A stretch of DNA of 56,081 bases from a virus (IMGVR_UViG_3300007760_000615:1-56081); one strand, 5' to 3'; positions 36,507-43,707 are shown, counted from the stretch's first letter. Translations and numbers: made by a program. Notes: generated from the letters alone by a model not told the origin.

Positions 36507-37010
36507 ATGAAGATCAAAGAAATCGCCATTGTGGGTTCAAAAATTTCAGATACTACATCTAGTGGCACTACATCTAGTGGTCAACCGGTGGGGTCACCAC
36601 AAGATATAGTACCTGATATGGTTGACAATAAGGTTTTATGTCAACCAGACCATTCAGCGATAGCGGAAGGCGTGAGCCAAATTTTTAGAAGAAAGAAAGG
36701 TGGAATGCCTACGAAAGGTTTTAGATGCACGACAGGTCCAAGAAAAGGTCGTATCGTTGCCAAGCCATCAACCTGTTTTCAAAAAACAGATCCGCAACGG
36801 TCAGCAAAGATAAGAAAGGTAAGACAACGAAAGGCCAGAATCGCAGGTAAGAAACTAGGCATCACAAAAAGATCTGGAGCAGGTTCAAGAAGATTACAAG
36901 GAATTCAAATAGGTGGGAAGAAACAAGGCAAAGGTGGTAAGTCAACGGCACCAAGAATGAAATCCACGGCACCAAGAAAATCAAAAACAATCAAGCCAAG
37001 AAAATCATAG
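36507..37010 (+). CDS. very basic late protein whose 5' part overlaps operator repeats
   Basis: TAAATA upstream; MKIKEI start; FRCTTGPRKGRIVAKPSTC. Confidence 0.7.
   Translation: MKIKEIAIVGSKISDTTSSGTTSSGQPVGSPQDIVPDMVDNKVLCQPDHSAIAEGVSQIFRRKKGGMPTKGFRCTTGPRKGRIVAKPSTCFQKTDPQRSAKIRKVRQRKARIAGKKLGITKRSGAGSRRLQGIQIGGKKQGKGGKSTAPRMKSTAPRKSKTIKPRKS
36550..36612. promoter_or_regulatory. NrdR-box-like operators (3 copies; copies 2 and 3 are 32 bp apart)
   Basis: ACTACATCTAGT at 36552 and 36567, ACAAGATATAGT at 36599; fit CwAnATnTwG. Confidence 0.7.
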
Positions 37011-37063
37011 AAGAAATTTTTAAATAATGTTAATATGAAGAATGAAAAAGGAAAAAGAAAAGA

Positions 37064-37267
37064 ATGTTTCAACGAAACAAAAAGAAATCATGGTCAAAAG
37101 AAGAAGGCCAATTTTTTAGAAGAAGAAGACAGACAAAAAACAATTCAACATTTGACCCTAAAATACATAAGATGAGTCCACACGGGCTCGGATATCAAAT
37201 GAAGGATGATGTTAAGCCTAACCCAAAAGAATCAACGGGTGCGGTATTAAAAAATATACTAAAATAA
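37064..37267 (+). CDS. small basic hypothetical protein
   Basis: 67-aa ORF with AAGGA upstream. Confidence 0.55.
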   Translation: MFQRNKKKSWSKEEGQFFRRRRQTKNNSTFDPKIHKMSPHGLGYQMKDDVKPNPKESTGAVLKNILK

Positions 37268-37293
37268 GTTAAAAAAGTTGGTTTTCACCCATG

Positions 37294-37341
37294 GCACTAC
37301 ATCTAGTGGTCACCAGGTGAAGCCACTACTACATCTAGTCT
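37294..37341. promoter_or_regulatory. tandem NrdR-box-like operators, 32 bp apart
   Basis: ACTACATCTAGT at 37296 and 37328. Confidence 0.7.
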
Positions 37342-37425
37342 TTCACAACCCCGTGTAAGTCATTGAAATCATTAGACATTTTCCTGGACTTTATATATAC
37401 GGATTTTTTCACGGTCATTTTACCA

Positions 37426-37455
37426 GGTTGACGGTATTAAGACCTATGTTATTAT
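37426..37455 (+). promoter_or_regulatory. early promoter, GGTTGAC class
   Basis: TTGACG, 16 bp, TATTAT with extended TG. Confidence 0.8.
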
Positions 37456-37460
37456 AAAGC

Positions 37461-37745
37461 ATGGATTTGAAAGAGAAAATTTTAGAAAAAACATCAGCAG
37501 ACCTAATAGAAGAGCTGTATGAAGATTTCATAGACCAATACCAAAAAGGAAAATTCGTAGAAGGTATTTGTGAATGGAATGGTGACGATGCTTTAATGGG
37601 ACCAGAATCAGTTGCTCATAAATTTAAAAAGAAAGCAATTGAATTAGGATATGGTTCTAATATGAAAGGCATTTTATATTGGGCAGAAGAATTAGAACAA
37701 TGGGTAGATGGCCATTTAGGACATTTAGAAAGTAAATTTAGATAA
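37461..37745 (+). CDS. hypothetical early protein, probably leaderless
   Basis: ATG 5 nt after the -10 box. Confidence 0.7.
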   Translation: MDLKEKILEKTSADLIEELYEDFIDQYQKGKFVEGICEWNGDDALMGPESVAHKFKKKAIELGYGSNMKGILYWAEELEQWVDGHLGHLESKFR

Positions 37746-37936
37746 TGAGTTTAAAAAATAAAAAACAATATTATATCACAGAAGGACATATTGATGAAGA
37801 TGGAAATGAATATGAAAAAGATTATAGTGGACCTTTTACTTTGAACAAGGCAAGAAGACTTATGGAAGGTTATTTTAAAAGTTCTTATCATTTTAGAAAT
37901 CCTTACAATATGAATATCAGAGGACCAGGATTATGA
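37745..37936 (+). CDS. hypothetical early protein, paralog of 38614..38913
   Basis: YYITE..GPFTL.KAR..IRGP shared. Confidence 0.7.
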   Translation: MSLKNKKQYYITEGHIDEDGNEYEKDYSGPFTLNKARRLMEGYFKSSYHFRNPYNMNIRGPGL

Positions 37937-38061
37937 AAAAGAAAAGAAATTATTTAGAAAGAAAATTAGACGAATATAATCATACAATGGAATTGATTAG
38001 AACAATCCTTCCGGTTGCGATTATAGTTCTACAAATTATTATATTGGTGAAAATTATATGA
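37933..38061 (+). CDS. 42-aa membrane peptide (not in ORF track)
   Basis: MKKKRNYLERKLDEYNHTMELIRTILPVAIIVLQIIILVKII; ATGA-coupled at both ends. Confidence 0.65.
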   Translation: MKKKRNYLERKLDEYNHTMELIRTILPVAIIVLQIIILVKII

Positions 38062-41434: not shown

Positions 41435-41820
41435 TGGAAAGAATTTGGGAGAAAGACTACGGGCCTTTTAGAGTGTTTGGTTATGTCGCACCAGAAGAAA
41501 TGGATGTAGAAGAAATATTTGAAAATGATGCGGATAATGTAGATGAGATAAGAGCCGATATTAGAATGGGCGACAAGGTTTGGGTCTATGCCACAGCCAG
41601 AGTATTCTGTAAAGGAGTTGAACTAGGTGATGCATCAATAGGTGGACTTTTATATAAAGATTATGATGGAATTAAAAAAGAAATATTTGACGAAGACACT
41701 CATGATATTGTTCATGATGCTTTAAAAGAAGCAAGAGCGTCTTTAAATTATTTAAAAGATGTCAAAGCACCCCCAAGAGAACAATTGACATCACAATTTA
41801 TGGAAGGACAGGTATATTAA
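41434..41820 (+). CDS. hypothetical early protein
   Basis: TAATG coupling. Confidence 0.7.
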   Translation: MERIWEKDYGPFRVFGYVAPEEMDVEEIFENDADNVDEIRADIRMGDKVWVYATARVFCKGVELGDASIGGLLYKDYDGIKKEIFDEDTHDIVHDALKEARASLNYLKDVKAPPREQLTSQFMEGQVY

Positions 41821-42371
41821 TGTCAACAAGAGCAATGATAGGGTATCTTAATAAAGATACAGATAGAGTGACAGGAATTTACAGCCATTGGGATGGTTAT
41901 CCAACAGGCGTAGGATTGAACCTATTAAAATTTTATGGCAATCCTCAAAGAGTATTACATTTAATTGATGCCGGAGATGTTAGTGCCATTGATTGGGACA
42001 CAGGTCAGCCACTTCATTATGCTTTCAGAAGCACTTGGGTCAGATGGAATCCAATTGATAAGAAATTTGATAATGAATGGGACAGAGGCGGATTAGATGA
42101 AAAATGGGATGATGTCAAACCAAGGCTGTATAAAAATATAGAACAATATCTAGATGAATCATTAAGTGGAAAATCTATGATTGCTTATGCTTATCTTTTT
42201 GATACTTCATTAGGGAACTCTCCAAGATGGAGATGTTTCAAATCTATATATGGTGAAGACAAGATAGTAGAAGTGAGTATGGATAGAAAACTTTTAGAAA
42301 AAGGTAGAAAGTCTAAAAAACATCCAGACGATAAAGTTATTGGTGAAATGAAAATAAGGAAGGTGGCGTAA
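41820..42371 (+). CDS. conserved phage protein with HWDGYP motif
   Basis: MSTRAMIG..IYSHWDGYP..G..L..Y. Confidence 0.75.
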   Translation: MSTRAMIGYLNKDTDRVTGIYSHWDGYPTGVGLNLLKFYGNPQRVLHLIDAGDVSAIDWDTGQPLHYAFRSTWVRWNPIDKKFDNEWDRGGLDEKWDDVKPRLYKNIEQYLDESLSGKSMIAYAYLFDTSLGNSPRWRCFKSIYGEDKIVEVSMDRKLLEKGRKSKKHPDDKVIGEMKIRKVA

Positions 42372-42482
42372 TGGCGAATATGAAATGTCTACAATGTGGA
42401 ACAGATATTCTAAGTTCAACAGATCACTCAACAGATGAACCTTATATGTTTGTCTGTAATGATTGCCGAGATGAAATAGGTA

Positions 42483-42797
42483 ATGGCGGAGAGTATGACC
42501 CAAATGGATTACCTAAAGACTTTACGGATAGATATCATGACTGATGTTAGAGAAGCAACGAATAAGATTTTAGATATGGTTGATGAAGGTATCTTAGATA
42601 AAGATATGGTTATAATGGCTTGCCTAAAATATATGTCAGAAGATGATGTGGCAGATATGGCACATTGTAATGAATTCTTTTTAAATGAAGAAAATGAATC
42701 AGAATTTACAGATGATGATGGCAATCCTATTAGTGAAGAAGAACAGGAGAGAGCGAACCATATTGCTAAATCACAAGACAGGGGGGAGATGGCATAA
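42483..42797 (+). CDS. acidic hypothetical protein
   Basis: C-terminus shared with 49543..49926. Confidence 0.7.
   Translation: MAESMTQMDYLKTLRIDIMTDVREATNKILDMVDEGILDKDMVIMACLKYMSEDDVADMAHCNEFFLNEENESEFTDDDGNPISEEEQERANHIAKSQDRGEMA
42735..42791 (+). repeat. 57-bp dispersed repeat, copy 1
   Basis: One mismatch to 49867-49923. Confidence 0.9.
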
Positions 42798-43036
42798 TGG
42801 ATATTTGGGTTAGTGATAAGATAGAAAACAATTTAAGAAAAGAAGGTTGGACTATTCCTAAAAGACCTTTAGAAGGACCAATATATTTTAAAGATGAAAA
42901 AGTAGGATTCAGCGATAACTTTATAGGATTAAGAGTAGAAGATGACAAGACAGAAGCAATTACATTTCTTGTAGATAATGAAGATAGATTGAATTTATGT
43001 TTATGGAACATACCAAAAAAGGAGAGAATGTGGTAA
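42797..43036 (+). CDS. hypothetical early protein
   Basis: TAATG coupling, GGGGAG RBS. Confidence 0.7.
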   Translation: MDIWVSDKIENNLRKEGWTIPKRPLEGPIYFKDEKVGFSDNFIGLRVEDDKTEAITFLVDNEDRLNLCLWNIPKKERMW

Positions 43037-43272
43037 AGAAAAAACATAAAGAAAAAGAAATAAAATTTAAAACTCTATACGATAAGAATTGGAGAGCGAT
43101 AGAAAAATTATGCGAATCAAATGACCCACTGATAGTTGCAGGTGTTATATTGGCACAGGCATTGAAGCTATACAAGACGGCACTATCAGATGAAGACTTT
43201 GAACGGATGATGCAGACTATTTTAGATTCAAGAACAGAAATAAGACCTTTACAAGGTCCAACAATGCACTAG
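43030..43272 (+). CDS. hypothetical early protein
   Basis: GTG start after AAGGAG. Confidence 0.65.
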   Translation: MVKKKHKEKEIKFKTLYDKNWRAIEKLCESNDPLIVAGVILAQALKLYKTALSDEDFERMMQTILDSRTEIRPLQGPTMH

Positions 43273-43280
43273 GAGGAAAT

Positions 43281-43493
43281 ATGGATGATTGGGATGATTT
43301 AATAAGTGGAGCAGAAGCGGAAGAAAAAAACGAGTGGGATGGCGAATGGTTTTGTCAGGCTTGTGAAGCTGGTCCGTGGCCAGAAGAAATGAAGAGCTGT
43401 GACAGATGTGGAGAGAAAAAAGATATCAAATATTCTGAAGATGATTATGATGCAGATGGTTATCTAATTGAGAAACCTGAAGAAATTTATTAA
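43281..43493 (+). CDS. small zinc-ribbon protein (RanBP2-like)
   Basis: WFCQAC..SCDRCG; AGGAGG RBS. Confidence 0.7.
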   Translation: MDDWDDLISGAEAEEKNEWDGEWFCQACEAGPWPEEMKSCDRCGEKKDIKYSEDDYDADGYLIEKPEEIY

Positions 43494-43659
43494 TGGTAAA
43501 AAGAATAGCAAAAAATATAATTGAGACTACTATATTTGGTGGAGTCGTAGTTGGTGGAGCAATAGGATTCTTAATGTTAGTAGGTATAGTTTCGATTACC
43601 TAAAAAAAAGCAAAAAAAGTTAAAAAAATCAGTTAAAAAGTCTAAGAAAAAAGTCAAAA

Positions 43660-43707
43660 AGACTACATCTAGTGGTCGCCAGGAGAGATCAACACAAGAT
43701 ATAGTAT
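43660..43707. promoter_or_regulatory. tandem NrdR-box-like operators, 32 bp apart
   Basis: ACTACATCTAGT at 43662, ACAAGATATAGT at 43694. Confidence 0.7.

Follow-up and report, generated by a model that had tools for sequence, protein, structure and literature searches.

Conserved NrdR-type box pairs in the putative early region of a marine phage, away from its ribonucleotide reductase genes

Why would a phage that encodes its own ribonucleotide reductase (RNR) carry the operator type of the bacterial RNR repressor NrdR at other genes? This question is raised by IMGVR_UViG_3300007760_000615, an IMG/VR viral contig of 56,081 bp (33% G+C, about 20% of the genome by CheckV estimate) of a giant, uncultured marine phage, whose full length is called the window here. 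In a block of short plus-strand open reading frames (ORFs) that begins at about 36.5 kb, with genes for a cell-wall hydrolase and an ATP-dependent DNA ligase among them, an earlier note made from the sequence had pointed out three tandem pairs of NrdR-like boxes, and had proposed that they either couple early cassettes to the nucleotide state of the host or act as decoys for NrdR. Our computational follow-up finds it well supported, at the sequence and evolutionary level, that the three pairs are NrdR-type operators kept by selection. We put at roughly 0.6 the probability that NrdR of the host controls part of the early programme through these three operators, in response to deoxyadenosine triphosphate (dATP) and ATP.

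The NrdR box is a 16-bp, partially palindromic sequence in which C4, A6, A8, T9, T11 and G13 are highly conserved (PMC13584703). The optimal linker between two boxes, measured for four NrdR proteins, is 15-17 bp (PMC12051234), and the centre-to-centre spacing corresponds to three helical turns (PMC12051234, PMC13584703). The consensus of Rodionov and Gelfand 2005, as quoted in PMC4009431, was originally defined via association with nrd genes. Following PMC13584703, we defined a strict pair as two boxes that both contain the six critical bases and are separated by a linker of 15-16 bp. In the window, the 12-mer ACTACATCTAGT occurs at 36552, 36567, 37296, 37328 and 43662, and the 12-mer ACAAGATATAGT at 36599 and 43694. 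The seven corresponding 16-bp boxes form the three pairs A, B and C (Table 1), each with an offset of exactly 32 bp and thus a 16-bp linker (3/3), and all seven boxes contain the six critical bases. A strict-pair scan of the window returned three pairs, exactly the reported ones. The linkers (GGTCAACCGGTGGGGTCACC, GGTCACCAGGTGAAGCCACT and GGTCGCCAGGAGAGATCAAC) resemble one another, probably due to duplication. Hence the core positions given in the earlier note, including the additional copy at 36552, the 32-bp offsets, the related spacers and the match at all conserved NrdR-box positions were all recovered. Its remark that no pair precedes the phage nrdA was upheld as well, since neither the strict-pair scan nor a scoring scan of the window detected a box pair upstream of nrdAB, and its statement that the window holds no nrdR gene agrees with the model searches described below.

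These sites are far more numerous than expected from base composition. All five exact copies of the first 12-mer in the window lie within them, and when up to two mismatches were allowed, 25 matches were found, compared with 6.1 +/- 2.5 in 100 shuffled sequences, none of which reached 25. First-order Markov simulations (n=300) gave a mean of 0.023 strict pairs, with at least one pair in 7/300 and at least three in 0/300.

The bacterial context of the pattern was derived from a scan for the exact pair in prokaryotes, with one genome per species, which yielded 61 bacterial or archaeal loci with a gap between the 12-mers of mostly 19-20 nt. An RNR gene was detected in 35 of these loci by tblastn of the fetched locus with NrdA and NrdB of the window. 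Ten more flanking ORFs were tested, of which three encode NrdD or NrdJ and one encodes NrdR, while the remaining six comprise an aminotransferase, an MFS transporter, an integrase and three without a family. At least 39 of the 61 loci therefore adjoin NrdA/B, NrdJ, NrdD or NrdR, and several of the others run to a contig edge. These results demonstrate that the pair pattern marks nrd genes across phyla. An RNR gene was found in the fetched stretch of none of 44 viral loci with the same pattern. Together, the critical bases, the linker and the bacterial nrd context identify the window sites, at the level of sequence, as NrdR-type operators.

We then assessed conservation without bias towards the boxes, by collecting relatives through protein similarity to ORF-A, the gene that contains pair A. 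Among 14 ORF-A homologues (54-70% identity), a strict pair with an offset of 32 is present in the same codons in 12. At least one strict pair occurs in 14 of 15 related records, and the four largest related contigs (40-93 kb) contain exactly three each, within about 7 kb. The linker in relatives is 15 or 16 bp. The reversed pattern gave no match on the related records, and no strict pair was found in 422,579 bases from 80 loci of other marine phages that also encode the hydrolase, nor in the 813 kb of five cultured Kyanoviridae genomes. G001, G003 and G004 likewise gave no pair. Specifically, G037, which is syntenic with the window at 36-76% amino-acid identity, contains pair A, another, weaker one and two more that stand immediately before GGTTGAC promoters. 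L002, a relative found by its ligase, retains the three modules, its box sequences being changed and its offsets 31-32 bp. In both of them a box pair also precedes the hydrolase-ligase genes. The earlier note had regarded loss of the 32-bp spacing in relatives as a reason to give up its proposal; what we observe is that an offset of 31-32 bp is kept. In four metagenome runs, one of the 40 differences listed (1247 in total) falls inside a module, at 43684 in the linker of pair C.

Pair A occupies codons 15-35 of ORF-A, whose N-terminus MKI.E and reading frame are kept in relatives. ORF-A has no Pfam, PHROG or PDB match, and a protein atlas places it only in viral hypothetical clusters. Because pair A is coding, because seven of the 44 viral matches are Thr/Ser-rich coding repeats (gap 18 in five and 21 in two) that we counted as chance, and because the related linkers suggest an origin by duplication, the boxes might be a by-product of Thr-Thr-Ser-Ser and Gln-Asp-Ile-Val codons, a coincidence, or a duplicated segment without function at the DNA level. 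We counted variation in the 13 unique pair A sequences obtained from all protein-found homologues (median pairwise identity 68%). Variant cells amount to 2/156 at the six critical positions of both boxes, 44/260 at the other box positions and 73/208 (35%) in the linker. Four third codon positions coincide with critical NrdR bases (A8 and T11 in box 1, A6 and T9 in box 2) and vary in 2/52 cells, compared with 30/78 for third codon positions in the linker, a difference with a nominal Fisher p of 2e-6, which is not a true probability as the sequences are related. Substitutions that change the amino acid (Thr/Ile, Ser/Tyr and Ser/Cys) are found at non-critical box positions. The near-invariance of critical third positions, together with amino-acid changes elsewhere in the boxes, indicates that the constraint acts on the operator and not on the peptide. 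In addition, pairs B and C are intergenic, the three pairs compare with 0.023 expected, and relatives keep their pairs with different box sequences and with offsets of 31 as well as 32 bp. An origin by chance or coding is thus contradicted by the simulations, the conservation in relatives and the codon-position counts, and we regard it as extremely unlikely. Pair A in ORF-A represents a clear case of a coding sequence constrained by an embedded operator.

Further repeats surround pair A. Directly after it, inside ORF-A, lies an inverted repeat (TGATATGGTTGACA and TGTCAACCAGACCA) with arms of 14 nt that are 86% complementary and 11 nt apart, and an additional GTCAACC is located inside the pair A linker. 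The leader before ORF-A contains five direct TCAGCT(C/A)/TCAGTTC repeats with a spacing of 14-17 bp, while L002 and L048 have arrays of a different, GGTGTTTAGGT-like repeat at the same leader position. The leader repeats are iteron-like and could represent an origin or the site of a phage-specific regulator.

The position of the boxes relative to promoters bears on their function. Six near-identical sigma-70-like promoters, composed of GGTTGAC, a 16-nt spacer and TG-TAT..T, were predicted in the window (Table 1); early promoters of this type in T4-like phages have a TTGACN -35 element, a spacer of 16-18 nt and an extended TG-TAnnnT -10 element, and stand before short early ORFs. The distance from the proximal 16-mer to the next GGTTGAC is 7 nt for pair A, 84 nt for pair B and 19 nt for pair C. 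The promoters after pairs B and C are named PB and PC; PB reads into two small ORFs without a Pfam or PHROGs match. The GGTTGAC that the earlier note saw after each pair is therefore present in all three cases, although the copy after pair A has no -10 element behind it; likewise, its description of the pairs as lying at early promoters holds for B and C, whereas A is inside a conserved gene. Across the window and its relatives, 13 distinct intergenic pairs show gaps to GGTTGAC of 8 (five pairs), 9 (three pairs), 18, 19, 75, 84 and 88 bp. Ten of the 13 thus end 8-9 or 18-19 bp before GGTTGAC, and these two groups differ by one helical turn. Assuming that transcription starts about 7 nt after the predicted -10 element, the boxes would be centred near -53 and -85, or, in the window, at -63.5 and -95.5, farther from the start by one helical turn.

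This fixed distance is relevant to the decoy that the earlier note had proposed, in which the boxes soak up host NrdR as phage DNA multiplies, lift the repression of host RNR and raise the supply of deoxynucleotides (dNTPs), with a secondary effect on neighbouring phage genes. Each genome copy brings seven boxes, which replication would multiply, and the phage's own nrdAB is without boxes. In other phages, the pairs stand beside unrelated genes, including those for portal, terminase, integrase and pyrimidine-dimer glycosylase, and an unrelated viral contig of 46% G+C (L026) contains eight overlapping box pairs with 31-34 bp spacing at about 8605-8800, a run that resembles a sponge more than an operator. 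Phage infection also strongly induces the NrdR regulon in S. pneumoniae (PMC6755750), which dNTP drain alone would explain. A decoy, however, needs no fixed place, yet most of the intergenic pairs keep theirs, and relatives retain both the number (three) and the order of the early-region pairs. Moreover, three operators make a small sponge, and the phage already brings its own RNR. The fixed box-promoter distance favours local control of transcription over a pure decoy, which we consider unlikely; titration is possible as an added effect.

In the reading that we favour, host NrdR, as a tetramer with ATP and dATP, would occupy the phage box pairs. At PB and PC it would sit a short distance before the -35 element, and in ORF-A, the first early gene, it would sit within the 5' part. 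As long as dATP is plentiful, NrdR would lower the transcription of the ORF-A, PB and PC units, of which the PC unit would drive the hydrolase-ligase genes; once replication drains dATP, these early units would be released. Part of the early programme would in this way be tied to the dATP/ATP state of the cell, while the phage nrdAB, being without boxes, would escape NrdR control. The NrdR tetramer bends DNA by about 180 degrees (PMC9110341), and by analogy such a bend at the upstream edge of a promoter could hinder the polymerase.

Several observations weigh against control by host NrdR. At canonical operators, the NrdR boxes are upstream and overlap the site of RNA polymerase or the start of transcription (PMC9110341), and this usual placement is not found here: there is none at nrdAB, the pairs end 8-19 or 75-88 bp before GGTTGAC (84 and 19 nt for B and C), and pair A lies about 45-105 nt into a gene, so that the mode of repression would be non-canonical. 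Boxes are present at only two of the six window promoters (37426 and 43727), which narrows the claim of the earlier note that early cassettes are under box control. The promoters are consensus matches, and a generic promoter scan gave 67 promoter-like sites versus 61.6 in shuffled sequences. In three relatives whose ligase is 76-80% identical, the sites are lost or degraded, with a degenerate pair left in L001, one box in L004 and no site in L003. The phage records are fragments (3-55% complete by CheckV), so that a phage-encoded NrdR could lie elsewhere in the genome, and genes annotated as NrdR are listed for other marine phages (table of PMC8790148). Finally, the presence of nrdR in the host is assumed because the gene is near-universal, with exceptions listed (PMC4009431); the alphaproteobacterial host named in the earlier note was a guess.

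As to the protein that would bind, host NrdR is the simplest and most likely candidate. NrdR from the model bacteria E. coli and S. coelicolor binds heterologous boxes (PMC13584703). Searches with TIGR00244 (NrdR) and PF22811 (NrdR zinc-ribbon) gave no match in the window or in G001-G004, and none in 13 relatives. Nor was there a match in the 44 viral records that the pattern retrieved; completeness is 90% or more in four of these, and intergenic pairs are present in three of the four. The same search found NrdR in 9 of 14 control genomes. These negative results speak against a binder encoded by the phage, whether an NrdR homologue outside the sequenced fragments or an unrelated regulator, for which the boxes would serve as the phage's own early/middle switch. 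The conserved positions are also exactly those of the cellular NrdR box, and the linker is free to vary, like that of cellular operators. Such a binder is nevertheless consistent with the fragmentary state of all clade records, the box-bearing relatives being at most 39% complete, with the annotated NrdR genes of other marine phages, and with the related window linkers and accompanying GGTTGAC/GTCAACC copies, neither of which is needed by a plain NrdR operator. We judge it quite unlikely.

The geometry of the sites also raises the question of activation, since box centres near -53/-63 and -85/-95 resemble the positions of class I activators and keep the same helical face relative to the promoter. 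These positions rest on predicted promoters and an assumed transcription start, and in the excerpts of PMC12051234, PMC13584703 and PMC9110341, NrdR is described only as a repressor, dedicated to RNR genes. Alternatively, the sites may be part of a replication origin: pair A stands beside the iteron-like repeats, in a divergent region between two gene blocks; direct repeats stand before ORF-A both here and in relatives, each phage having its own repeat sequence; and DnaA-box-like sequences adjoin the NrdR pair in some bacterial and proviral matches (L027, L040, L058 and L098; TGTGGATAAC or TTATCCACA in L027, L040 and L098). Either role, activation by NrdR or another box binder or participation in an origin, appears very unlikely to us, and repression by host NrdR would remain the effect that we expect.

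The pattern scan of IMG/VR retrieved 44 viral contigs. Besides the seven coding repeats, five belong to this clade, and from reading their flanks we sorted the other 32 into about 19 sequence groups, with a G+C content of 32-70%. This wider scan suggests that phage-borne NrdR-type pairs are not confined to this clade. It is possible, though we would hold to it only tentatively, that many phage lineages co-opt NrdR and that the three operators gate the early programme here, perhaps non-canonically from -53 to -95 and even by activation, with titration in addition. NrdR would then be a general signal of host replication readiness read by phages, as about twenty other viral contig groups carry this operator type. 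Among these contigs, five viral records of 5-15 kb (L006, L016, L018, L028 and L032; at most 96% complete by CheckV) have an NrdR-type pair 7-10 bp before an ORF of about 377 aa. In L006 and L028, the two that were tested, Pfam identifies this ORF as a portal protein; the five records may be satellite-like elements. Pairs beside integrase genes were observed in the proviruses L027 and L040, in L055 and L058 (Longispora albida), and in L098.

Protein searches with the ligase, NrdA and the DUF6267 protein place the phage near the marine T4-like Kyanoviridae, with an identity of only 30-72%. Its NrdA shares about 67-72% identity with the NrdA of marine cyanomyophages and pelagimyophages. For the DUF6267 protein, identity is about 40% to proteins of Pelagibacter phage HTVC008M, Methylophilales phage Melnitz and cyanophages, which are all assigned to Kyanoviridae. 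A blastn search with window positions 36001-44000 gave no match among cultured phages, so that no close isolate is known, and the metagenomes with this stretch are from marine, seawater and hydrothermal-vent samples; no RNA run was listed with it. The relative L001 (G001) measures 242,646 bp at a completeness of only 55% (CheckV), from which genomes of this clade may reach several hundred kb. The auxiliary gene set of the window is unusual, consisting of TctA, an asparagine synthase, two radical-SAM proteins (one with a SPASM domain), a UDP-glucose-dehydrogenase-like protein and a DegT aminotransferase. The tricarboxylate-transporter subunit TctA is full-length and, when the phage's own cluster is set aside, 58% identical to the nearest homologues, some of which are on long contigs. 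No Rfam match was found in 36000-44500, and no tRNAs in the window. In addition, some metagenome contigs join 38548 to 40730, skipping the 2181 bp between two GGTTGAC promoters, and others return to 38544 after 40543; shuffling of the promoter-flanked early cassettes seems to take place in natural populations.

Table 1 Coordinates of the box pairs, predicted promoters and genes in the window
Feature	Position	Strand	Remarks
Leader repeats	36414-36480	plus	before ORF-A
ORF-A	36507-37010	plus	167 aa, Lys/Arg-rich, conserved, virus-only; pair A in 5' part
Box A0 ATACTACATCTAGTGG	36550-36565		extra 16-mer inside ORF-A, 15 bp before A1; all six critical bases
Box A1 GCACTACATCTAGTGG	36565-36580		distal box of pair A; ORF-A codons about 20-25
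Box A2 CCACAAGATATAGTAC	36597-36612		proximal box of pair A; offset 32 bp
Inverted repeat	36614-36652		inside ORF-A
Box B1 GCACTACATCTAGTGG	37294-37309		intergenic
Box B2 CTACTACATCTAGTCT	37326-37341		offset 32 bp from B1
Early-type promoter PB	37426-37455	plus	GGTTGACG, 16-nt spacer, TG-TATTAT; starts 84 nt after B2; consensus match only
Small ORFs after PB	37461-37745, 37745-37936
Same-family promoters without boxes	38560-38589, 40730-40759, 47749-47778, 49025-49054	plus	consensus match
Box C1 AGACTACATCTAGTGG	43660-43675		intergenic
Box C2 ACACAAGATATAGTAT	43692-43707		offset 32 bp; top-scoring box of the window, 22/24
Weak third box near pair C ATCTAATATATGGTTT	43706-43721		score 17/24; 14 bp after C2
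Early-type promoter PC	43727-43756	plus	GGTTGACG, 16-nt spacer, TG-TATTAT; 19 nt after C2; consensus match only
ORF with weak DUF7717 match	43766-44188	plus	match below cut-off; downstream of PC
Cell-wall hydrolase (Hydrolase_2)	44189-44782	plus	downstream of PC
ORF	44772-45089	plus	no assigned function; downstream of PC
ATP-dependent DNA ligase	45086-46402	plus	downstream of PC
Phage nrdB	5842-6942	minus	class Ia RNR
Phage nrdA	6963-9425	minus	class Ia RNR, with ATP-cone
Auxiliary genes (jointly)	25175-26611, 2471-4240, 11887-13200, 29029-30237, 32754-36008	minus	all on this strand

Full-text searches, whose coverage leaves out key older papers and supplementary motif tables, found no published description of NrdR boxes on phage genomes. 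If control by host NrdR is true, the NrdR regulon would extend to viruses, at early genes of a lytic-type phage and not at the phage RNR, and the phage would gain a direct read-out of host dNTP state, the resource that limits phage DNA synthesis.

Compared with the bacterial NrdR operators of E. coli (nrdAB, nrdHIEF and nrdDG) and S. coelicolor (nrdAB and nrdRJ) (PMC4009431, PMC9110341, PMC12051234 and PMC13584703), the phage sites are alike in their two 16-bp boxes with six critical bases, in the 15-16 bp linker of free sequence and in the centre spacing of three helical turns, and identical 12-mers precede nrdA, nrdJ, nrdD and nrdR in bacteria. Unlike the bacterial operators, they lie on a lytic-type phage genome and at no RNR gene, the phage nrdAB being without them; their boxes end 8-19 (or 75-88) bp before the -35 region without overlap of the predicted polymerase site; one pair is inside a coding sequence; and extra boxes occur at offsets of 14-15 bp. 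Sites for host transcription factors are familiar on phages, as in the NtcA and PhoB boxes of marine cyanophages and the LexA boxes of temperate phages. There, too, operators of a host sensor-regulator at phage genes read host physiology, whereas here the phage would read the dATP/ATP ratio through NrdR. T4-like phages have promoter-flanked early gene cassettes, and the window is alike in having near-identical sigma-70-type promoters (GGTTGAC..TG.TAT..T) that recur between its short early ORFs; it differs in that a subset of these promoters has an NrdR operator directly upstream.

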